Origin: a virus
Length of the DNA stretch: 51,103 nt
Virus record (IMG/VR): IMGVR_UViG_3300045988_112499
Strand: one strand, 5' to 3'
Shown: positions 2,340 through 51,103 of the stretch, piece after piece
Position numbering within the stretch: the stretch's first letter is position 1
How the letters are laid out: every line of letters begins with the position of its first letter
Program-made: the position numbers and the translations under genes
The notes under the pieces: generated by a model
What the model was told of the DNA's origin: nothing
What the model saw: only the letters and a program-made list of their open reading frames with translations
The model's database searches: none

Positions 2340-2723
2340 TTATTGAATAAGTTGACCCGAATAGTTTAGAAAGTCGGATTCAACCATTTGTTTAATTTCT
2401 TCTACTTTGTTCAAATAAGCAATATACTTGTCTTGCAAAGTTTTATCCTCTGAAATCCCAAGTTCAAAACGCTTGTTGTCATTTGCAAGGTCTATTTCTT
2501 GCGTCACGTCCCAAGTGTTTGAAATTACGGCCTTTTTTACGGTTTTTGATGTTGGTATCCCCCACACCTTTACGCTTTCACATTCCCAAGACTTCTTGAC
2601 GGGAACATTTTCTTGATCAACTTCTTGCGGCTGATCAACTTCTTTGAAATCGTAGTTGTAAAACCATGAACCATTGCCAAGATTTTGAAATACATTTGGC
2701 TTATCGTCTGAAACTGATTTCAT
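2340..2723 (-). CDS. Hypothetical acidic protein downstream of the DGR RT
   Basis: 127-aa ORF overlapping the RT 3' end by 23 nt; not helical-bundle-like. Confidence 0.5.
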   Translation of the reverse strand: MKSVSDDKPNVFQNLGNGSWFYNYDFKEVDQPQEVDQENVPVKKSWECESVKVWGIPTSKTVKKAVISNTWDVTQEIDLANDNKRFELGISEDKTLQDKYIAYLNKVEEIKQMVESDFLNYSGQLIQ

Positions 2724-3711
2724 ACGCTGAATTTTTTAAAAGTTTGTTTACAAGGTTTATTGAATCGCAATACTTACACCAACCCCACCAACTGCAAATC
2801 TGTTGTTTGAAGGATTCAAATTTTATGTCTGTCTTTTTGTTCAATTCTGCAACCCGGCGGCAAAATCTTTGCTTGATAGACTTTCGTAAAAGTGTGTGAG
2901 TATGAAAGAAGCGGTATCCTAAAAAGTCAATCCCCCGTGAATCGACCGGAAATACTTGAAAATTGTGCTTGATTTTCAATTTCAAATTGTCCCGAAGGTA
3001 AACCCGCATTTCACGCAATAAGGCGTGAAGTGATTCTTTGCTTGAAGATAGAATCACAATATCATCGGCATAGCGATAGAAATATCTTACTTGCTTGACT
3101 TCTTTGATCCAATGATCAAAATAAGCAAGATATAAATTGGCGAAATATTGGGATAAGTAATTCCCAATAGGTACACCGTCGGCCGAATCAATAATTTCGT
3201 CAAGTAACCAAAGCAAGCGTTTATCCTTTATTTTTCTGCGAATAACCTGTTTTAGTATATCGTGATCAATAGAAGGATAAAACTTGCGAACATCTATCTT
3301 TAGACAATAAATTGTGCCTTCCGGGTCTGTCTTTAAATCATATTTGACCCGTTTAGCGGCTGCATGTATTCCCCTATTCTTGATGCAAGAATAGGTGTCA
3401 TTTGTGAAGACTGAAACCCAAATCGGTTCAAGAACATTCATAATTGCATGATGCGTGATCCTATCCGGGAAATATGGAAGTCTAAAGATTTGCCGTTCTT
3501 TTGGTTCATAAATTGTGAAGACATCATACTGTGACGTCTTGTATGTTTGAGTTAAAAGCATTTCTTGAAGACGCAAAAGATTCTCGTCACGGTTTTTGTC
3601 GTGCCGTTGGACCCCGTAAGATCGAAGCTTTCTTCTGCGGGCTTTTTCATCGGCCAATCGCAAATTCTCAATGCTACAAATCTGATCATACAAATTTCCA
3701 AGTCTTTTCAT
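2701..3711 (-). CDS. DGR reverse transcriptase
   Basis: YADD catalytic motif (RYADDIVILS) and the DGR-type IGNYLSQYFANLYL motif; adjacent TR/VR pair. Confidence 0.95.
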   Translation of the reverse strand: MKRLGNLYDQICSIENLRLADEKARRRKLRSYGVQRHDKNRDENLLRLQEMLLTQTYKTSQYDVFTIYEPKERQIFRLPYFPDRITHHAIMNVLEPIWVSVFTNDTYSCIKNRGIHAAAKRVKYDLKTDPEGTIYCLKIDVRKFYPSIDHDILKQVIRRKIKDKRLLWLLDEIIDSADGVPIGNYLSQYFANLYLAYFDHWIKEVKQVRYFYRYADDIVILSSSKESLHALLREMRVYLRDNLKLKIKHNFQVFPVDSRGIDFLGYRFFHTHTLLRKSIKQRFCRRVAELNKKTDIKFESFKQQICSWWGWCKYCDSINLVNKLLKNSAYEISFRR

Positions 3712-3727
3712 TTATCTTCATATTATT

Positions 3728-3746
3728 GTATATCAGTGTGATATAC
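3728..3746. promoter_or_regulatory. Dispersed palindrome copy 1: G TATATCA GTG TGATATA C
   Basis: 16 nt upstream of the RT start codon, inside the TR-RT spacer. Confidence 0.8.
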
Positions 3747-3890: not shown

Positions 3891-4008
3891 TATAAGCATA
3901 GCTGAGAACCGATATTCGCATTCGTATTCGACGCCGTATTATTCGTATTCGAGTAGCTGACACCTGCATTCGCACCATTATTCGAAGAACCGCTGAACAA
4001 CACACCCC
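3891..4008 (-). repeat. DGR template repeat (TR)
   Basis: 118 bp aligning without gaps to VR1 (offset +193) and over 78 bp to VR2 (offset +37679); 30 adenines on the minus strand; nine AAT codons in the VR reading frame. Confidence 0.95.
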
Positions 4009-4065
4009 GACGACGGACAACCCTTTTATTTCAACTCAAAATTTCAAAATTCAAAAAACGATTCG

Positions 4066-4080
4066 GGGCGTTACACGCCC
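4066..4080 (-). promoter_or_regulatory. GC-rich hairpin immediately 3' of VR1
   Basis: GGGCG (4066-4070) / CGCCC (4076-4080) with a 5-nt loop, spanning the stop codon of the target gene. Confidence 0.5.
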
Positions 4081-5405
4081 GGTAAAAAGCAAAGCCGAGA
4101 ACCGACAGACGCAGCCGCATTCGACGCCGTATTAGCCGTATTCGAGCAGCCGACACCCGCATTCGCACCATAAGACGAAGAACCGCCGAACAACACACCC
4201 CTTTGAGCTTCACCGGAAGCCGGAATATTTGTATAGAAATAATCTGAAAAATATGTCGTCGATCCGGCCCCAACTGCAAGCGGCATGAATTCACCATATT
4301 CACCGATAATCATTTCCTTGATATAACCTTCTTTGCGTGGCAATACGCCCCGTAATTCATAGTTATTATAGTTTGTATCTTGGAAATATTGCGGGTCCTC
4401 ACAAGCGTAAAATTCAGATAATCCCCCGTCGGTTTCTGATTGGATACGGCATTTACAACCGTCAACCCATGACCAAATATGACCGAATGGATTTTCTATT
4501 CCACGATAAGAAGGAACACCAACGGTCAAGATCGTAGTGTCATAATCTTGCGGTAAGTTGTAATTGACAACTCCGGTTGCATTACCTAATGAATTGGTTA
4601 CACCGCAAGGAAGAAGCGGATAATAACCTGTAAAATTGCTCCATTTCGTACTGTTTACCGTAGTAACTCCCGCACCCAAGCCGCCTTGCTTGTATCCTTC
4701 CGAAGTTGGTTGCGCATTGAACGCTAATTGGCAATTAAAGTTTGCATACTCAACGGCACGCAACCAATACAACACACGTTGCACGAAGTATGTGTCGCAA
4801 TTCCAATTGACTGATCCACGATTTCGGGCGTACTTTCTGAAGTTGGTTAAACTGATTGCAGTTGCGGGACGTCCTAATTGCGTTTTGCTTAGTTCGTCCC
4901 AAGCCGTTTGATTTCCCCCGCCCCTGTAATCGGCTGAAGTGTTGACAACTGAAGACAATTTCAATGTCGAACGTTGAAGGGCGGCTTCATACGCTGAAAT
5001 ATACATTTTCGGGATGCGTCTAAATCCGGGCAAAGCGTATATTGACATCAAACAACGGCGTTTAGTTCCTTCCATTTCAAAGCGGACATAGTGTTCCGGT
5101 ATTTCGACCATGACTTGCCCGGTTGCCCCCGTCAGATCAGCCGCCGCACCGTTGTCACGTTTAGTCGAATCATTGGCATGAAGATAATAAACCACGTTTC
5201 CGGCATCATTCAAGATGCAACGGCGCATAAGTGATTGAATAGGCAATGAAACATGAAGTTCCGGTCTGCCTAAACGAGTACAAGCGGAATCGGCAACATT
5301 TGTGTCCCATTCGATCCCATAAAAGTAATTATAGGGGAATTTTGGTTCCGTTCCCCCGATTCCAATTAAGATTCCCATATCAATAGCCCCATTTAAGTTT
5401 GACAT
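4071..5405 (-). CDS. DGR target protein 1, tail-associated receptor-binding candidate with C-terminal C-type-lectin-like VR
   Basis: 444-aa ORF ending in VR1; located directly after the tail-fibre genes. Confidence 0.9.
   Translation of the reverse strand: MSNLNGAIDMGILIGIGGTEPKFPYNYFYGIEWDTNVADSACTRLGRPELHVSLPIQSLMRRCILNDAGNVVYYLHANDSTKRDNGAAADLTGATGQVMVEIPEHYVRFEMEGTKRRCLMSIYALPGFRRIPKMYISAYEAALQRSTLKLSSVVNTSADYRGGGNQTAWDELSKTQLGRPATAISLTNFRKYARNRGSVNWNCDTYFVQRVLYWLRAVEYANFNCQLAFNAQPTSEGYKQGGLGAGVTTVNSTKWSNFTGYYPLLPCGVTNSLGNATGVVNYNLPQDYDTTILTVGVPSYRGIENPFGHIWSWVDGCKCRIQSETDGGLSEFYACEDPQYFQDTNYNNYELRGVLPRKEGYIKEMIIGEYGEFMPLAVGAGSTTYFSDYFYTNIPASGEAQRGVLFGGSSSYGANAGVGCSNTANTASNAAASVGSRLCFLPGV
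4084..4201 (-). repeat. DGR variable repeat 1 (VR1)
   Basis: 19 mismatches to TR, every one at a plus-strand T (minus-strand A) of TR; encodes the C-terminal GVLFGGSSSYGANAGVGCSNTANTASNAAASVGSRLCF. Confidence 0.95.
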
Positions 5406-5652
5406 TTGACAATGAAGTTTGCTTCACTGCCTTTATAATTTCCGGGTTCCAACCCGGATAAAGCCTTGTTTCAATGAAGGTCCCGTCGTCCATTCCGGCG
5501 GGCGTAACTTCAAGATAGACGTCTTCATTTCCTTCATTCTTTAAAAGGAAGGCTTGACCGTCCGGCAATGAAAAGTTGCTATCTTGCAACCCTTCAATAT
5601 TGCCAAGCTTGGCAACTTGCGGACTTACCATTTCACCACTTCTTGTGTTCAT
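5380..5652 (-). CDS. Hypothetical protein upstream of the DGR target
   Basis: 90-aa ORF overlapping the target gene start by 26 nt. Confidence 0.5.
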   Translation of the reverse strand: MNTRSGEMVSPQVAKLGNIEGLQDSNFSLPDGQAFLLKNEGNEDVYLEVTPAGMDDGTFIETRLYPGWNPEIIKAVKQTSLSNVKLKWGY

Positions 5653-5685: not shown

Positions 5686-5704
5686 TTATATCACTGTGAT
5701 ATAT
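5686..5704. promoter_or_regulatory. Dispersed palindrome copy 2: T TATATCA CTG TGATATA T
   Basis: 33 nt upstream of the ATG at 5652; followed on the minus strand by TATTTTTG. Confidence 0.8.
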
Positions 5705-12246: not shown

Positions 12247-12265
12247 ATATATTACTGTGATATAC
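12247..12265. promoter_or_regulatory. Dispersed palindrome copy 3: A TATATTA CTG TGATATA C
   Basis: 7 nt upstream of the ATG at 12240, between the tape measure stop and the next gene. Confidence 0.75.
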
Positions 12266-21860: not shown

Positions 21861-21879
21861 GTATATCACTGTGATATAC
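21861..21879. promoter_or_regulatory. Dispersed palindrome copy 4: G TATATCA CTG TGATATA C (perfect 9+1+9)
   Basis: 44 nt upstream of the scaffold ATG at 21816; followed on the minus strand by CTATTTTTG. Confidence 0.8.
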
Positions 21880-22600: not shown

Positions 22601-22619
22601 GTATTTCAGTGTGATATAC
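22601..22619. promoter_or_regulatory. Dispersed palindrome copy 5: G TATTTCA GTG TGATATA C
   Basis: In the gap between plus-strand moron genes (22566-22766). Confidence 0.7.
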
Positions 22620-27491: not shown

Positions 27492-27510
27492 GTATATCAG
27501 TGTGATATAG
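27492..27510. promoter_or_regulatory. Dispersed palindrome copy 6: G TATATCA GTG TGATATA G
   Basis: 13 nt upstream of the portal ATG at 27478, after the terL stop. Confidence 0.8.
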
Positions 27511-30670: not shown

Positions 30671-30689
30671 GTATATCACACTGATATAC
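30671..30689. promoter_or_regulatory. Dispersed palindrome copy 7: G TATATCA CAC TGATATA C
   Basis: 43 nt upstream of the ATG at 30627; exact reverse complement of the copy 1 core. Confidence 0.8.
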
Positions 30690-37174: not shown

Positions 37175-37395
37175 TATCGCAAACTTTCAATTCTATTGCG
37201 GAATCGGGCCGCATATTCTTCGTTTTTGTTTTCCGGGGAAACAAGGATCACCGTATTAGCGTCGATTCTCAAACAAACTTTTCCTTTATCCCGTTTTCTC
37301 AATTCTTCCAAGTCAATTGATCCATTCTTGGAAATATCGGCCTTTTGGGGCCGTTTCTGACCTTCGGCGGTCAAACCTTCATTTTTTCTTGGCAT
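37174..37395 (-). CDS. Hypothetical basic protein
   Basis: 73-aa ORF; its start codon abuts palindrome copy 8. Confidence 0.4.
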   Translation of the reverse strand: MPRKNEGLTAEGQKRPQKADISKNGSIDLEELRKRDKGKVCLRIDANTVILVSPENKNEEYAARFRNRIESLR

Positions 37396-37412
37396 ATATT
37401 ACTGTGATATAG
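37394..37412. promoter_or_regulatory. Dispersed palindrome copy 8: A TATATTA CTG TGATATA G
   Basis: Spans the stop codon of 37399..38004 and touches the ATG at 37395. Confidence 0.7.
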
Positions 37413-41493: not shown

Positions 41494-41982
41494 TTAGGCG
41501 TTCAACAATAAAGAATCATTAAAAAGGTCGGTGAATGTCTGGCCGAAGTAGATTGCGAGTTCTCGATTTTTTAAGCAAAGCCGAGAACCGACAGACGCAG
41601 CCGCATGCGACGCCGTAGCATTCGTACTCGAGCAGCCGACACCCGCAGGGTTGGACATGTCGAACCAAGGATAATACTTGTATTCGTCGGAATCTTGCCA
41701 ATTGGGTTTCCAACCTTCGTTCAATGCTTCGGCAATGACGATCAACTTATAATTGGCAATGATTGCCTTTTGGTGTTTACGGGGCAAGCCTTTCACTTCG
41801 GGAACATTTGTTGAAATACCCAAAACTTGACAAGCGTCTTCAAATGATTTCACCCGGTCGGTGATGTTGTCGTATAATGCGACTTGTTTTCCGAATAGAT
41901 CGGATAAAACTTGTTTGCCTTCTTTTCCGGCATTGCGGAAAGCAACTAAAAGCGAATCTTGTTTAATTTGTAAAGTTCTCAT
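41494..41982 (-). CDS. DGR target protein 2 (small, remote)
   Basis: Contains VR2 in frame (PAGVGCSSTNATASHAAASVGSRLCL); ATG at 41982 (the track start is TTG). Confidence 0.8.
   Translation of the reverse strand: MRTLQIKQDSLLVAFRNAGKEGKQVLSDLFGKQVALYDNITDRVKSFEDACQVLGISTNVPEVKGLPRKHQKAIIANYKLIVIAEALNEGWKPNWQDSDEYKYYPWFDMSNPAGVGCSSTNATASHAAASVGSRLCLKNRELAIYFGQTFTDLFNDSLLLNA
41572..41649 (-). repeat. DGR variable repeat 2 (VR2)
   Basis: 78-bp ungapped match to TR 3893-3970 with 17 mismatches, all at TR plus-strand T (minus-strand A) positions. Confidence 0.9.
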
Positions 41983-41984
41983 TT

Positions 41985-42725
41985 TCAAAATGGTGTTTTA
42001 TTAAAATTTAAAATCATTCCTTTCTCTGCAATGTGAACCGTTTTTCCGGTTGCTTGGTGAATACCTTCACGGAATTCGACCGCATTGCTATTCCCGTCGG
42101 ATAAATGAATCAAAACGATATTGTTGACGGCTTTCAAATCGTTAGAAAGAAGGGCGTCCCGGCATGTGTCAAAAGACATGTGACTTTGCAATGTCCTATC
42201 CCGTAACGCTTTGGGGATTCTCCCTTCCGCAATGTTCCTTTCAAGAATGTCAAGGCGGTAATTGGCTTCAATCAACACGTTTGACAAGTTTTGAAATCGG
42301 TTCGGCAAATAATACGTATCCGTTGCGAATAGCACATTTCCCGTTTCTTCATGTTGGATCAGATAACCGAACGGTTCGGCGCAATCATGCTTTGTATGAA
42401 ATGGCAATACTTTGAAACGTCCGATCATATACACTTTCCCGGCTTCCAACGGGTGCGGTTCGTGATAACCTTGCCCGTTCATTGCTTGGATTGTTCCGGC
42501 TGAAGCATATACCGGAACGGACGTTTTCAATACTTCGTTGATCGCTTTACAATGATCCTTGTGTTCATGGGTGATCAGACACCCGGCGACTTTTTGTAAG
42601 TTAAAGTCGATTGCTTTCTTTACTTCAATGAAGGAAATGCCACATTCAAGAATAAGGGCTTCCGTTTCGTTTTCAAGGACATAGCAATTTCCCTTTGAAG
42701 AAGAACCAAGAATCTTCAGTTTCAT
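41985..42725 (-). CDS. Metallo-beta-lactamase-fold hydrolase/nuclease
   Basis: ITHEHKDH = HxHxDH motif. Confidence 0.8.
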   Translation of the reverse strand: MKLKILGSSSKGNCYVLENETEALILECGISFIEVKKAIDFNLQKVAGCLITHEHKDHCKAINEVLKTSVPVYASAGTIQAMNGQGYHEPHPLEAGKVYMIGRFKVLPFHTKHDCAEPFGYLIQHEETGNVLFATDTYYLPNRFQNLSNVLIEANYRLDILERNIAEGRIPKALRDRTLQSHMSFDTCRDALLSNDLKAVNNIVLIHLSDGNSNAVEFREGIHQATGKTVHIAEKGMILNFNKTPF

Positions 42726-42727
42726 AA

Positions 42728-43621
42728 TTAAAAGCCGGGGCCGTTTGCTTTAGGCGCATTGTTGCCCGGTTGATTCTGATTGTTCCCTTGGTCCGTTGGC
42801 TGATCTTCCGGTTGTGCCGGATCGGTTGCGGTTGGTGCATCATCAATATTGATTGTGCCTTTGTTGGCATTTTCTGCCTTCTCCTTTTCAACGGTATCGG
42901 TGACGTCTATATATTCAGCGTCAACAATGTCGTGCATTTCTTCAACCGTTTTCATACCCATTGACAATTCGGGCGCATAAGCGTTGGTCCACATTGAAGC
43001 GGCACGATAAGTCAACATTTGCCGGGTCATGGTTTGCCATTTGGAACCATTTTTGGTGTACCAACCTTCTTGAACTGCAAGTTTTACGTCAACCGGGGTT
43101 GATTCAAGAATGTCGGTTGATCCTTTCTTTGTAGTGTACGCAATACATTGGATATTGTCAATTTGGGTTCCGTCGAATACTTCAACCTTGGCTTCATTGC
43201 GATAATACCCTTTGCCGCCATTTTGTCCGGGCGTCCAAATCTTGTTGTATGTGGTGTATTCCACTTTCCCAAGTCTTCCAAGATTGGTGAATTTGTACTG
43301 AAGTGGATTGAATCGTCCGCATGTGTTTACGGTTGCGATCAAGAATTTTGAGGACCAAGCCGGGCGGCCGTAGATTGGCGTCATGTTCTGCATGATCATA
43401 AGCGGATCGGCCCCAATACGCATTGCGATTGATATTGCTATCATACAATTTGCCGTAGCTTTGTCGATAGGGTTCTTATCACTCACTTTGTACATGTCCG
43501 GGACAAGTTCAGAGTTGGCGAACATCTTGCAAACACGTTGCATCGTTTCAAACTGTGTCGGATCGAAGAAGTTGAATGTCACAACGTTCGTTCCTTGATC
43601 CATTTTTTGAAGTTCATTCAT
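42728..43621 (-). CDS. recT: RecT-like single-strand annealing recombinase
   Basis: SKWQTMTRQMLTYRAASMW resembles the RecT family; neighbours are nuclease/ATPase/SSB genes. Confidence 0.6.
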   Translation of the reverse strand: MNELQKMDQGTNVVTFNFFDPTQFETMQRVCKMFANSELVPDMYKVSDKNPIDKATANCMIAISIAMRIGADPLMIMQNMTPIYGRPAWSSKFLIATVNTCGRFNPLQYKFTNLGRLGKVEYTTYNKIWTPGQNGGKGYYRNEAKVEVFDGTQIDNIQCIAYTTKKGSTDILESTPVDVKLAVQEGWYTKNGSKWQTMTRQMLTYRAASMWTNAYAPELSMGMKTVEEMHDIVDAEYIDVTDTVEKEKAENANKGTINIDDAPTATDPAQPEDQPTDQGNNQNQPGNNAPKANGPGF

Positions 43622-43634
43622 TGTTGCGGTAATT

Positions 43635-44036
43635 TTAAAGAGTTATTTTATAGAGTTTCAAACCTTGGTAGTCAACCGGGTCTTTGGAAACTGAAAAGAC
43701 TATCTTTTTGTCATTCAGATCAATGTTCATTGACTTTGCCATTCTTTCAAGCACTTTTTGTGCTCCGTTTATCCGCATTGATGTTGCGATTTTAGGATCG
43801 TTCAATCGACATGTATATCCTTTGTAATCGTTTGAAGGGGCCAAATACCAATTGTTTTCTATTTGGCTACATACAAGAAGGATTTTCGCTTCGGTCACTT
43901 TTTCACCGAATAACTTGTTTTTTAATTCGGTTGAAATGTAGGCGTTTCCATGTTTGAAGTTGATTGACAAGTGAAACCCTTTGCGCACTCGTTGCGGTTG
44001 TTCGGATTCTCCGAAAATTAGAATTTGATCTTCCAT
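43635..44036 (-). CDS. Hypothetical protein
   Basis: 133-aa ORF. Confidence 0.5.
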   Translation of the reverse strand: MEDQILIFGESEQPQRVRKGFHLSINFKHGNAYISTELKNKLFGEKVTEAKILLVCSQIENNWYLAPSNDYKGYTCRLNDPKIATSMRINGAQKVLERMAKSMNIDLNDKKIVFSVSKDPVDYQGLKLYKITL

Positions 44037-44044
44037 GATTTTAA

Positions 44045-46036
44045 TTATTTAATAGTTAATGATTTATCGGTTGAAACTATAAGATTGATAATTTGGCTTT
44101 CAGTTGGGATCAACTGATTGACTGATTCACGGCCGTCAATGAATATCGGGGCCGTAACATTGTGGAACCGACAAAGGGCGTTGATAATATCCAACCCGGC
44201 GTTGATCTTTTCGGCCGTATTGGTTGAAGAAATAGGAACCCCGGCTTTGTTGGTTGCGATACATGCTTCAAATTCACCGCCGTCAATGGTCTTATCGAAC
44301 AATTCAAATTTGACGATAGAAAACAAGTTATTGATCCGTGATTCACATTCATTGATTTTGGTTTTCGTGAAATCCATGATCGTAAATTCCTTCTTTTCAA
44401 GGTCTGCAATCTGTTGGGCCAATTCGTCGGATTTCTTTTCAAGATCGTTGATTTCCTGTGTGTACTTGGCAATCCTTTCTTTATCAGACAATTCGGCCTT
44501 CAGTTCGTCCCGGCGGGATTCAAGCGTCTTCTTTTGTTCTTTCAAATCTGAAGTATCGACGGGCTTCACTTCTTCAATCGTTGCTTGAATAGTCTTGATC
44601 TGATTATCAAGTTCTTGCCATTCCGGTAATTCTTCAGCGATAACCGGGGCCGGGGAAACAATAGACATTTCGGCAAGCATATCTTCAAACTCTTTGACCG
44701 ATTTTTCAGCGTTGGCAACTTTAATCTTTTGATCTGTCAATTCGTTTTCGGCGGCAATAAGTTCTTTTTGTCGTTCTTCTAATACTTTTGAAAGGTTTGT
44801 GCCTTCTTCTTTGATACGGTCTAAGTTCGCTTGTTTGGTATCCCAAAATGATTGTTTGGCTTTTGATTGGTTTTCAGCATGAAGAAGCTTTGCAGCCGGA
44901 TCGCCACAAGGACCGCCGAAGACGGGGCAAGTCAAACAACCTTCTTTGACATCATAGGTTTTCGCTTCTTCTGCAAACCATTCTTTCCGCTTGTTTTCAA
45001 CCTTTTCATCCTGTTTGCTGATCACATCTTTCAGTGAAGAAACGGTTTGTTCTTGCGTTTTGAATGAAGAACGTACAGAAGAAAGGGTGATCCGTGCTTC
45101 GTTTAGTTTCCCTTCTGTTTCACGGCGTTTTGAATTTTGGGTGTTGGCATCATTGGCGGCCTTTTCCTTTGCTTCATGAACAACGGTTTGTTGTTTGGTC
45201 TTCAAGTCATTGATTTGACCTTGCTTCTTCTGAATTTCCTCATATTGTCCACGAATAGCGGTTGACTTGTCAGTCATGGACTTTTCAACCCTTTCAATTT
45301 CACTTTCAACGGCTTCCAATTCTGTTTGAAGGGCGTCAAAGTCTTTGGCTTCCGGCATCAACTTTCTTGTCTGATCAATACGTGAAGGGATCAATTTCAA
45401 ATCATTGTTCAACTCTGTTTTCTTAGCTGAAATTTCCCTTTTGTATTGGGTCAAGGTCTTTCCGATAATTGAATCAAGAAGGGCTTTGAATTCCGGCTTT
45501 GAAGCCGCAATTTGTTCGTCACTGATTGTCCCGGCAATGTAGAATAATTGCGAACGCTGATCTTGCCATTTCAGAGAAAGGAAGAAAGAAGGATTGGTGA
45601 TCATCTTGAAAACGGTTTCATCAATGATCGAATCAACCTTGGCCGCATATTCTTTGGCCGTACCGCATTTCACGTTATTGATATAAAACATAGTTTCACA
45701 CCCGTCGTATGTTTCAACGGCCGTTCCACGTTTGCGAACCCATTTTTGATGCAAGACACGCTTCAAGGTGATTTCTTCGCTGTTTACATCAAGCACGCCG
45801 CATACTTCAGCGTCAACACGATCAACACGTTTGCCATTTTCAATTGGTATGATATTATAATCTTTGCGGTCAAGAGAATCTTTGCCGAAAAGCAACCAAA
45901 TAAAGGCGTCAAACATTGTTGATTTTCCGGTTGCATTTGCACCACAAATGCTTGTTTCATTGGAAAAGTCGATTGACCTTTCCTTTTGTCCCTTCCAATT
46001 AACAAGGGATAATCTTTTTAAAATTACATTCTTCAT
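44045..46036 (-). CDS. SMC/RecF/SbcC-like AAA ATPase with long coiled coil
   Basis: N-terminal Walker A GANATGKST, central coiled coil, C-terminal ABC-like region. Confidence 0.75.
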   Translation of the reverse strand: MKNVILKRLSLVNWKGQKERSIDFSNETSICGANATGKSTMFDAFIWLLFGKDSLDRKDYNIIPIENGKRVDRVDAEVCGVLDVNSEEITLKRVLHQKWVRKRGTAVETYDGCETMFYINNVKCGTAKEYAAKVDSIIDETVFKMITNPSFFLSLKWQDQRSQLFYIAGTISDEQIAASKPEFKALLDSIIGKTLTQYKREISAKKTELNNDLKLIPSRIDQTRKLMPEAKDFDALQTELEAVESEIERVEKSMTDKSTAIRGQYEEIQKKQGQINDLKTKQQTVVHEAKEKAANDANTQNSKRRETEGKLNEARITLSSVRSSFKTQEQTVSSLKDVISKQDEKVENKRKEWFAEEAKTYDVKEGCLTCPVFGGPCGDPAAKLLHAENQSKAKQSFWDTKQANLDRIKEEGTNLSKVLEERQKELIAAENELTDQKIKVANAEKSVKEFEDMLAEMSIVSPAPVIAEELPEWQELDNQIKTIQATIEEVKPVDTSDLKEQKKTLESRRDELKAELSDKERIAKYTQEINDLEKKSDELAQQIADLEKKEFTIMDFTKTKINECESRINNLFSIVKFELFDKTIDGGEFEACIATNKAGVPISSTNTAEKINAGLDIINALCRFHNVTAPIFIDGRESVNQLIPTESQIINLIVSTDKSLTIK

Positions 46037-49170: not shown

Positions 49171-49589
49171 ATCATTCCTTCCCTTACCATTTTCTTATAG
49201 GATGCAATAAGGCGGGTTATTGCTTTATTTGTTAGTTTATCACGACCACCGATTCCCAAGAATTCAACATCGAATCTTTCGGAAGCGGCGGTTTTATTTT
49301 TCGCCTGCTTTATATTCAAATATTTGGATTTTGACTTTCCTGTATCTTTCCAATCCATATCAACATTATGAAGTAATTGGAATATAAATCTCAATGCTTG
49401 CAAGGCGACTTTTCCCCCGGCTTCATTACCATGATTGTTTTTCACTTTCATGACTAATTTGAGAAGGACAAGAATCATTTGTTCAATTCCCAAATATCCT
49501 TCACCTTCAACCTTTTCAGATTCGTCAATAATGTTTCCTAACTGATATTGACAACGAAAATAATGTCTTTTAGAATTCTTTGTTTTCAT
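49167..49589 (-). CDS. Hypothetical protein co-transcribed with the integrase
   Basis: 140-aa ORF overlapping the integrase 3' end by 20 nt. Confidence 0.45.
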   Translation of the reverse strand: MKTKNSKRHYFRCQYQLGNIIDESEKVEGEGYLGIEQMILVLLKLVMKVKNNHGNEAGGKVALQALRFIFQLLHNVDMDWKDTGKSKSKYLNIKQAKNKTAASERFDVEFLGIGGRDKLTNKAITRLIASYKKMVREGMI

Positions 49590-50880
49590 ATATTAAAAAG
49601 TTAAGTACCTTTCTATTTGCTTCGTCAATTAAGGACCAATCCTTTGCAATGTAGACATCTGCCATTTTTAAACCTTCATCAACATGGTTCAAGGAAAGAT
49701 TGATGTCGTCTTTGGAAACTCCGCAATTGTTCCGGGCGATTGTGGCCCAACTATGCCGGGCGTAATACGTCGTTAAATTTTCTTCTATCCCGCATTTTGC
49801 GGCAAGTTTCTTTAATCCCTTATTGACGTTGTTTCCGAATGTATGTGAATCGCAATATCTCTTAGAGAAATCAAACAGATAGTCACCGGATTTGGCCCGA
49901 TATTTTTCTATAAGTGGCACGACTTCGGGTTCTACCTTGATCGAAATGAAAGCTTGGTCCCGGCGACGCCCTTTTGTTTTTCGGCGTTTATATGAAAGCC
50001 GTCCTTCTCTGAAGTCTGAAACTTGCATGTCGTAAAGATCGGCCATATTGATGCCAACAAGGTAAAATGATAGCATAAAAACGTCACGGGCAAACTTTGT
50101 GCGTTCAAACTCCAACTCGTTTTCGTTTATCTGTGATATTGCTTTTATTTGATCGGGCTTCAAATTTCGTTTGTCGGGTTCCGGCGGTTTTTGAAGTTTG
50201 TATTTTCTGAAAGGGTAGTGAGCAATCAAAACTTCATCTTTTTCGTCGTCATTGTATTCGTTGATTGCAGCATTGAACAATATACGTACATTGGTCATGT
50301 AGTCAAAGACGCCAACATCGGATAATGGCTTTTTCTTGGTAGTCACCATTTTCCCAAATTGATTTTTTCTTTTAATTGTTCTTTCGCTCCGAAGATGTTT
50401 TTCAAATTGCCTTAAAAATTTTGATGTTATTTCGGTGATAGCGATTCTTTCCCTTCCGTTACAAAAGTCAATAATTGCATTTGTTGCGGTTTCCAAGGTT
50501 TGCGCCGTTGAAATTCTACCTTCGTTTCTTAACCGTTCGCAATGCTTGCGAGAAAATGCAATGAAATCAATTGAGGAATCGGAACCGGGCGTTGTTTGCT
50601 TTTCAAAATATTCGGCAAGTTCTTTGGCCGTATATAATTCTATGCGCAAACCAAGCTTTTGCGATTTTAGTTCTTCGTATTTGGCAATCCTTCGATCAAG
50701 TTCACGAATGATGAATGAATCCTTCAGAACAAACGCTTTCTTGTTAATCTGTTTGTCCGTGACATAGAATTCAGTTTTTATATATCCGTATTGCCGTTTC
50801 CAACAAACCCGGATCGAAACGGGGTATTTCTCGTCGGCCCGTCTTTGGTGTTTGAAAATACATATTTTGAATGTTGCCAT
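49570..50880 (-). CDS. int: Tyrosine recombinase / phage integrase with N-terminal arm-binding domain
   Basis: N-terminus MATFKICIFKHQRRADEKYPVSIRV (Bacteroides-type arm-binding); C-terminus YYARHSWAT...LNHV...ADVYIAKD; adjacent to the tRNA fragment. Confidence 0.9.
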   Translation of the reverse strand: MATFKICIFKHQRRADEKYPVSIRVCWKRQYGYIKTEFYVTDKQINKKAFVLKDSFIIRELDRRIAKYEELKSQKLGLRIELYTAKELAEYFEKQTTPGSDSSIDFIAFSRKHCERLRNEGRISTAQTLETATNAIIDFCNGRERIAITEITSKFLRQFEKHLRSERTIKRKNQFGKMVTTKKKPLSDVGVFDYMTNVRILFNAAINEYNDDEKDEVLIAHYPFRKYKLQKPPEPDKRNLKPDQIKAISQINENELEFERTKFARDVFMLSFYLVGINMADLYDMQVSDFREGRLSYKRRKTKGRRRDQAFISIKVEPEVVPLIEKYRAKSGDYLFDFSKRYCDSHTFGNNVNKGLKKLAAKCGIEENLTTYYARHSWATIARNNCGVSKDDINLSLNHVDEGLKMADVYIAKDWSLIDEANRKVLNFLIYENKEF

Positions 50881-51014: not shown

Positions 51015-51103
51015 CCCAAGAGTGGAAGCCTCCTAAACGCCTAATTTTATCTTGGTAGCGGGACCCGGGATTGAACCGGGGACCTCATGATTATGAACTC
51101 TAA
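51015..51103. repeat. Terminal direct repeat, right copy
   Basis: Identical to 1-89; about 135 bp upstream of the integrase start codon (50880). Confidence 0.95.
51053..51103 (-). tRNA. Partial tRNA gene, 3' portion (second copy, integrase-proximal)
   Basis: Same sequence as 39-89; same orientation as the integrase gene and upstream of it, the classical tRNA-int arrangement. Confidence 0.7.

Follow-up and report, generated by a model that had tools for sequence, protein, structure and literature searches.

The phage genome analysed here, IMG/VR virus record IMGVR_UViG_3300045988_112499 (the whole 51,103-nt stretch, called the window below), carries a single DGR, and comparison with related genomes indicates that this element has, in addition to the tail protein encoded beside it, a genuine second, remote and actively diversified target: VR2, a short repeat within the gene for a 162-aa protein. 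Judging from sequence, we put at about 85% the probability that VR2 is a functional target that the phage's single DGR serves in trans. An earlier note on this DNA had proposed a second, remote DGR target outside the structural genes, and this is borne out, as the protein is soluble, non-structural, encoded in the early region and hypervariable at the columns in which the template repeat (TR) has an adenine (TR-A columns). All genes of the window lie on the minus strand, and the features that matter here are as follows.

2701–3711, minus strand: DGR reverse transcriptase (RT), 336 aa; Pfam RVT_1, E = 7e-20; IGNYLSQ and YADD motifs in the translation
3893–4008, minus strand: TR, between the tail-protein gene and the RT gene, from repeat alignment
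4071–5405, minus strand: primary DGR target, a 444-aa tail protein; phrog_5302 'tail protein', E = 2.5e-130
4086–4201, minus strand: VR1, at the 3' end of the tail-protein gene; 18/18 mismatches at TR A over 116 nt
41494–41982, minus strand: gene of the 162-aa VR2 protein, member of phrog_11581; profile E = 3.2e-42
41558–41589, minus strand: candidate hairpin at the VR2 3' boundary, GGTTCTCGG/TCGAGAACT, with a 14-nt loop; DNA fold -9 kcal/mol, z = -1.9
41572–41649, minus strand: VR2 as reported; 17/17 mismatches at TR adenines
41573–41592, minus strand: VR2 3' end, GTCGGTTCTCGGCTTTGCTT, an IMH-like element differing from TR ATCGGTTCTCAGCTATGCTT at positions fixed in all VRs
41985–46036, minus strand: early recombination module upstream of the VR2 gene (SbcC-like ATPase, 133-aa ORF, RecT-like protein, MBL hydrolase), from domain search

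The cassette has the gene order VR1-TR-RT. By Pfam search and by reading of the translation, the RT is intact, with the IGNYLSQ and YADD motifs that we take to be of the DGR RT type. No Avd accessory protein was found, the small ORFs near the cassette being without a Pfam or NCBIfam match. A conserved 90-aa ORF (5380–5652, minus strand; phrog_26422, E = 1.6e-32), also without a Pfam match, overlaps the start of the tail-target gene, and a small ORF likewise precedes the DGR target gene in phage Versailles; the window ORF could be an unrecognised DGR accessory protein.

Realignment of VR2 (41572–41649) with TR 3893–3970 confirmed the ungapped match of 78 nt that had been described, with 17 mismatches, every one at a TR adenine. 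This TR segment holds 24 A in its 78 nt (17/17 mismatches at A, hypergeometric P = 5.5e-12), and the substitutions from TR to VR2 comprise nine A>G, six A>C and two A>T. The repeat is, as claimed, in frame within the 162-aa ORF, which runs over 41494–41982 from an ATG, and with the 89-nt terminal overlap taken into account, the distances given earlier between TR and VR2 hold (37.7 kb on the linear map, 13.3 kb on the circular one). The window ends (1–89 and 51015–51103) are identical over these 89 nt and many database contigs of the phage are 51,014–51,018 nt long, which means that the genome is circular or circularly permuted, so that TR and VR2 really are joined by a short path of 13.3 kb. 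Two of the earlier counts needed correction: 25 codons rather than 26 follow VR2, and VR1 and VR2 differ at nine columns rather than eight, the added one being 4086/41572. The bases at 41648–41649 (TR columns 3969 and 3970) are 'CC' in every VR2 copy and thus belong to the flank, not to the VR. The true TR homology of VR2 spans about 41573–41647 (~75 nt), and its hypervariable zone occupies 41592–41633, some 14 codons corresponding to protein residues 117–131.

The case for active diversification comes from relatives of the phage. An A-masked pattern of the repeat, run on IMG/VR and on JGI/ENA metagenomes, returned 11 TRs, 10 VR1s and 7 VR2s; the A-masked TR pattern had no match in GTDB genomes. 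TR is invariant in 10 of the 11 related genomes. Across the first four VR2 copies, 17 of the 78 columns are polymorphic, all 17 being TR-A columns, and the remainder of the gene is about 97% identical among relatives. The 7 VR2 and 10 VR1 copies together are polymorphic at A columns only, with a single exception that co-varies with the TR of its own genome: contig IMG_000142 has a G in place of A at TR column 3921, and both its VR1 and its VR2 also have G, which fits transfer from TR to both sites. Adenine retention is 47% in VR2 and 51% in VR1. The same picture emerges from the protein, for which a search gave 2,637 matches; variability was taken from the best 120 cluster representatives, all of them 162 aa long and 94–96% identical to the query. 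In these 120 distinct variants, positional entropy is near zero except at residues 117, 119–123, 126–128, 130 and 131, which are exactly the codons with adenines in TR, and the residues seen at the varying sites (N, Y, H, S, D, T, A and others) are those expected from mutagenesis of AAT codons. The earlier question of whether related phages show A-column hypervariability is answered by these comparisons: VR2 is not invariant in relatives and is polymorphic solely at TR-A columns, which argues that it is not a relic.

The arrangement recurs in other phages. Homologues of the 162-aa protein were found by tblastn in Bacteroides phage Versailles, LoVEphage and its relatives, Dulem virus 41 and crAss-like phages; megablast of the 38–46 kb part of the window against the phage collection gave no match. 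The Versailles family member lies in a matching SbcC-RecT-MBL-NinB neighbourhood and contains a 107-nt VR in which 14 of 14 mismatches to that phage's own TR are at A. For the LoVEphage homologue the figure is nine of nine, and in six LoVEphage-type genomes TR is identical; the polymorphic columns of VR1 are precisely the 17 A columns, and the same is true of VR2. The crAss-like phage cr60_1 has an Mtd-like tail protein, an RT and an early-region family member, gp86, whose loop matches the cassette. The family member therefore matches the TR of its own phage, with mismatches mostly or only at adenines, in all four lineages checked (the window phage, Versailles, LoVEphage and cr60_1), and these four fully examined lineages are accordingly DGR-linked.

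These distal targets belong to one family. The window protein matches phrog_11581 ('unknown function') over its full length, as do those of Versailles and LoVEphage (E = 3.2e-42, 1.3e-78 and 1.1e-50, respectively), and an exhaustive HMMER search put the family at 3,118 clusters at 50% identity, of which 1,476 reach E <= 1e-10. Its members are small, soluble and mostly helical phage proteins, in most cases 120–165 aa long. From N to C terminus, the family consensus consists of a helical part, the motif ALNEGWxPxW...E.KYYPWF, a variable stretch of 20–30 residues, VGSRLCFK and a conserved ELAxYxGxxFxxLY helix; the variable loop is thus flanked by an invariant G-S-R-L-C strand, which a conserved C-terminal helix pair follows. 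In four IMG/VR subfamilies, pairs of members with a scaffold identity of at least 92% reach only 60–75% in the loop/VR. The earlier note had VR2 covering only two-thirds of TR; read as a truncation, this does not hold, as a YYPWF-GSRLC spacing of 20–30 residues is the family norm. We also considered whether the 162-aa protein had arisen by in-frame deletion from the 194-aa form found in LoVEphage and Versailles, and dropped this idea because short motif spacing dominates the family and the length of 162 aa is constant among close relatives; a short VR is what family members usually have. Some members are tandem-duplicated, with two complete scaffold-loop-GSRLC units (P0124, P0125, P0128, P0131, P0134 and P0136), and others bear an acidic, low-complexity C-terminal extension of ~120 aa (P0189, P0210, P0242 and P0266). 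The 162-aa protein has no match in Pfam, NCBIfam or PADLOC and no defence or anti-defence annotation.

The VR2 gene lies, as first described, between an MBL-fold hydrolase and a membrane protein, the upstream product matching Pfam Lactamase_B_2 and the downstream 127-aa product being multi-TM. The VR2 gene has its ATG 2 nt beyond the MBL hydrolase stop codon, and 11 nt beyond its own stop codon the following gene begins. The same-strand block runs in the order sigma factor, SbcC-like ATPase, RecT-like protein, MBL hydrolase, VR2 gene and membrane protein, with a replication initiator and a DnaC-like loader further on, and we infer that the VR2 gene is expressed early. In 14 of 46 IMG/VR loci, which come from several subfamilies (loci L006–L009, L027 and L031–L044), the gene immediately upstream of the family member encodes an MBL homologue; the linkage of the family to the recombination module is conserved. 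The earlier note had called a cytoplasmic-looking protein under DGR control unusual. The first part of that description stands, the protein being soluble and without a hydrophobic segment; its rarity does not, since the arrangement already appears in two publications (PMC8008677, PMC12629997) and is present in Versailles and cr60_1 as well.

A truncated C-type-lectin fold, also proposed earlier, found no support. The AlphaFold2 model of the 162-aa protein, built from a 112-sequence alignment, is mostly helical and confident (pLDDT 88.3, pTM 0.78), with VR2 as a lower-confidence loop (pLDDT ~60). Foldseek found no match for it in PDB (best E = 2.2) and, in BFVD, matches only to uncharacterised phage proteins, crAss-like ones included; a model of a family member with a long VR (pLDDT 88.6) likewise reached a best PDB E of 2.2. 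A profile search of PDB sequences with the family gave nothing, and none of 112 family members scanned against Pfam matches an FGE-sulfatase or DUF1566-type family. With two confident models lacking a PDB match below E = 2, in searches run without a positive control of known C-type lectins, and with the Pfam scan and PDB profile search negative as well, we rejected the C-type-lectin fold as unsupported. Profile comparison of the VR2 protein with the tail target aligned 27 residues only, namely the VR and GSRLCF.

The earlier note had also argued that VR1 and VR2 are diversified independently. This does not follow from the window alone, in which the two are unusually alike, and is borne out by comparison across genomes. 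Eleven columns are mutated in both window VRs and all 11 have the same base in VR1 and VR2, so the window by itself gives no proof of independent diversification. When the fixed columns are removed, seven of seven doubly mutated columns are identical (P ~0.0025), a point against fully independent homing. Identity between the window VRs at the variable A columns is 11/17, against a mean of 6.7 (SD 2.2, maximum 10) for 67 between-genome pairs. Two more genomes of the window lineage show VR1-VR2 values of 5/17 (IMG_000142) and 9/17, the two VRs of Versailles have just 2 of 22 columns in common, and in the six LoVEphage genomes similarity is 6.2 within genomes and 5.3 between them (permutation P = 0.14). 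Over the three window-lineage and six LoVEphage genomes there is no significant trend towards within-genome coupling, and the window is an outlier. Elsewhere, VR2 of crAss-like cr60_1 is 91% identical to VR1 (NC_055891.1, 14118–14525 versus 60420–60483), each differing from TR at ~20 adenines, and in PQ571265 six of seven doubly mutated columns are shared between the VRs. Only the A positions of AAT, ACG and ATC codons change, so that agreement in amino acid nearly always entails agreement in codon, and convergent selection and VR-to-VR conversion are therefore inseparable here. The likeness of VR1 and VR2 in the window and in cr60_1 could reflect occasional VR-to-VR conversion or co-selection. 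In the LoVEphage assemblies OY725593.1 and OY731444.1 (L073, L078 and L004), the VR2 genes are 100% identical and the VR1s differ, the TR-plus-VR1 region being 97.3% identical, a hint of unequal turnover in the two targets.

How far do these observations allow other accounts of VR2? If it were a relic in decay, or had arisen from VR1 by a single duplication and were no longer diversified, the agreement of the window VRs at all 11 doubly mutated A columns would be natural, as would a VR2 that spans part of TR only. The comparison across populations refutes this: VR2 of relatives varies at A columns only and exists in 120 distinct variants, the TR marker of IMG_000142 is found in VR2, and a short VR is the family norm. 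We hold a relic or duplication to be extremely unlikely. Another account makes gene conversion from VR1, carried out by the phage's RecT/SbcC recombination functions, the main source of VR2 diversity, in place of TR cDNA that homes to VR2 directly. The 11/17 identity in the window, which exceeds every between-genome pair, the 91% identity of two cr60_1 repeats that both differ from TR at ~20 adenines and the shared columns of PQ571265 all point in this direction, but the coupling is absent from IMG_000142, Versailles and LoVEphage, and convergent selection would look identical given that the same residue nearly always has the same codon; as the main source of VR2 diversity, gene conversion seems to us highly unlikely.

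A further account accepts that VR2 is diversified but sees this as a neutral by-product of homology, or off-target homing, in a loop without an adaptive role. It draws on the want of a known function and on the loop's pLDDT of ~60. Against it, four distant lineages have all retained the arrangement, and in each the VR corresponds to a TR that is that lineage's own and unlike the others; across thousands of clusters, the scaffold that surrounds the loop is invariant and the C-terminal helix conserved; and 120 of 120 variants are full length. We judge it unlikely.

Under the reading that we favour, with VR2 as a second target of the DGR, the RT (2701–3711) would copy TR RNA (3893–4008) into cDNA and misincorporate opposite adenines. 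The mutated cDNA would replace VR1 in the adjacent tail-protein gene, and the same cDNA would replace the homologous ~75 nt of VR2, 37.7 kb off or 13.3 kb on the circular map, thereby rewriting ~11 codons (within residues 117–131) of the 162-aa protein. The shared 3' element GTCGGTTCTCGGCTTTGCTT, with its two fixed differences from TR, is probably the homing (IMH-like) signal. Its two distinguishing positions are part of a set of four TR adenines that are replaced by one and the same base in 17 of 17 VR copies from at least 11 genomes, at the following positions.

TR 3965 (A>G): VR1 4158, VR2 41644
TR 3958 (A>G): VR1 4151, VR2 41637
TR 3903 (A>G): VR1 4096, VR2 41582
TR 3899 (A>T): VR1 4092, VR2 41578

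Columns 3903 and 3899 read G and T, respectively, in all 17 VRs, and A in all 11 TRs. By analogy with phage BPP-1, we interpret GTCGGTTCTCGGCTTTGCTT in the VRs and ATCGGTTCTCAGCTATGCTT in TR as an IMH/IMH*-like asymmetry. The changes at columns 3965 (GCA>GCG) and 3899 (CTA>CTT) are synonymous, so protein-level selection cannot account for those two. The fixed synonymous G at 3965 is present in VR1 too, and the IMH reading covers the 3' pair (3903 and 3899), not the pair that is internal in VR1. A conserved GGGCGT/ACGCCC hairpin follows VR1, at ~4060–4078. At VR2, the candidate stem GGTTCTCGG/TCGAGAACT joins the G-S-R codons to downstream R-E-L codons; among 32 family members, this stem and an alternative, CTTTGCT/AGCAAAG, can pair in 63–72% of cells, versus at most 49% with a slid partner, and neither has covariation greater than that of shuffles.

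A DGR with two targets of this kind has been published. The second target of 'Quimbyvirus'/LoVEphage was described by Benler et al. 2021, who stated that its role 'remains to be investigated' (PMC8008677); the LoVEphage locus that we fetched has exactly the neighbourhood given there. A 2025 Nature paper (PMC12629997), which cites the former work for LoVEphage, describes four prophage species in which a second VR lies distally, close to counter-defence genes, and both papers that noticed the distal target leave its function open. The global DGR survey of Roux et al. 2021 was unable to detect remote targets, and the literature that we searched does not describe the small VR2 protein at the level of family, structure or function. 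What the present analysis adds is the very large size of the family, its unmatched predicted fold and its recurrence across unrelated Bacteroidota phage lineages.

Like Quimbyvirus/LoVEphage, the window phage has one TR and RT beside a tail protein, and its second VR lies at a great distance from the cassette, in a small protein that is non-structural; the distal targets of the two phages are homologous (same PHROG, tblastn E = 6e-13) and show adenine-only mismatches. Unlike it, the window phage is ~51 kb long with a Versailles-like gene order, has its VR2 gene in a SbcC/RecT/MBL recombination operon rather than among methyltransferases, and has a short VR2 of ~75 nt instead of 107 nt; furthermore, the published account calls the target a C-type lectin, which our models do not support. 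With Bordetella phage BPP-1 (Mtd, TR, Brt and Avd), the window phage shares adenine-specific transfer from TR to VR, an invariant TR, the VR1-TR-RT order, a putative IMH-like 3' element whose TR and VR versions are not the same, and a GC-rich hairpin after VR1. It departs from BPP-1 in having two targets, of which one is remote and non-structural, in the failure to detect Avd, in an internal VR2 followed by 25 codons and in a VR2 scaffold that is not a recognisable C-type-lectin fold. Cellular DGRs, such as those of Legionella, Treponema and cyanobacteria (in part after reviews cited in PMC5758913), have remote or multiple targets that are paralogous C-type-lectin or Ig-type surface or signalling proteins. 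There, as here, one TR serves several VRs in trans, but the targets are paralogous, whereas the two targets of the window share only the 27-residue VR segment. In the two-target tentaclin DGRs, for which the resemblance of VR1 and VR2 in the same genome has also been asked about, both targets are structural C-type-lectin proteins inside the cassette (PMC10743442). The likeness lies in two different proteins diversified from one TR and in a VR2 shorter than VR1; the difference is that the VR2 target of the window is remote and non-structural.

DGR-diversified phage proteins are normally receptor-binding parts of the tail. A soluble early protein that is rewritten from the template of a tail protein suggests that phages evolve intracellular recognition at high speed too. 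The distal targets are shown here to belong to one very large protein family whose predicted fold, confident in the models, is unmatched. We offer only tentatively, as a possibility that we lean against, the idea that the VR2 protein is a diversifiable intracellular binder of variable host or competitor factors in takeover or counter-defence. A broader proposal is more doubtful still: phrog_11581 might be a dedicated non-lectin scaffold of intracellular hypervariable binders that unrelated Bacteroidota phages (temperate siphovirus-like phages, LoVEphage and crAss-like phages) have separately wired to their tail-fibre DGRs, acting early against variable host factors, in counter-defence or receptor masking, with a specificity occasionally synchronised with that of the tail protein by VR-to-VR conversion or co-selection. 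The window phage is a gut Bacteroides phage, with Bacteroides uniformis as its likely host, and it is abundant: public assemblies contain hundreds of nearly identical genomes. This makes it a practical system for tests of function.

Finally, we note some features of the genome as a whole. The 89-nt terminal repeat holds a tRNA-like T-arm fragment (GGGATTGAACCGGGGACC) and adjoins the integrase gene (49570–50880); ARAGORN found no complete tRNA in the window. The repeat probably marks the place where the assembly of a circular genome overlaps itself, across the attP core, and the existence of database contigs both of 51,014–51,018 nt and of 120–256 kb suggests that free and integrated forms both exist. 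An 18-nt palindrome, TATATCACTGTGATATAC, is present at eight sites (3729–3746, 5687–5704, 12248–12265, 21862–21879, 22602–22619, 27493–27510, 30672–30689 and 37395–37412), against 0.02 expected by chance. Several of these sites lie directly upstream of minus-strand genes, including the RT gene and the operon with the tail-target gene, and the palindrome is absent from the 38–51 kb early region that contains VR2. It is probably an operator or late-promoter element, in which case the DGR cassette and VR2 would sit in differently regulated units.
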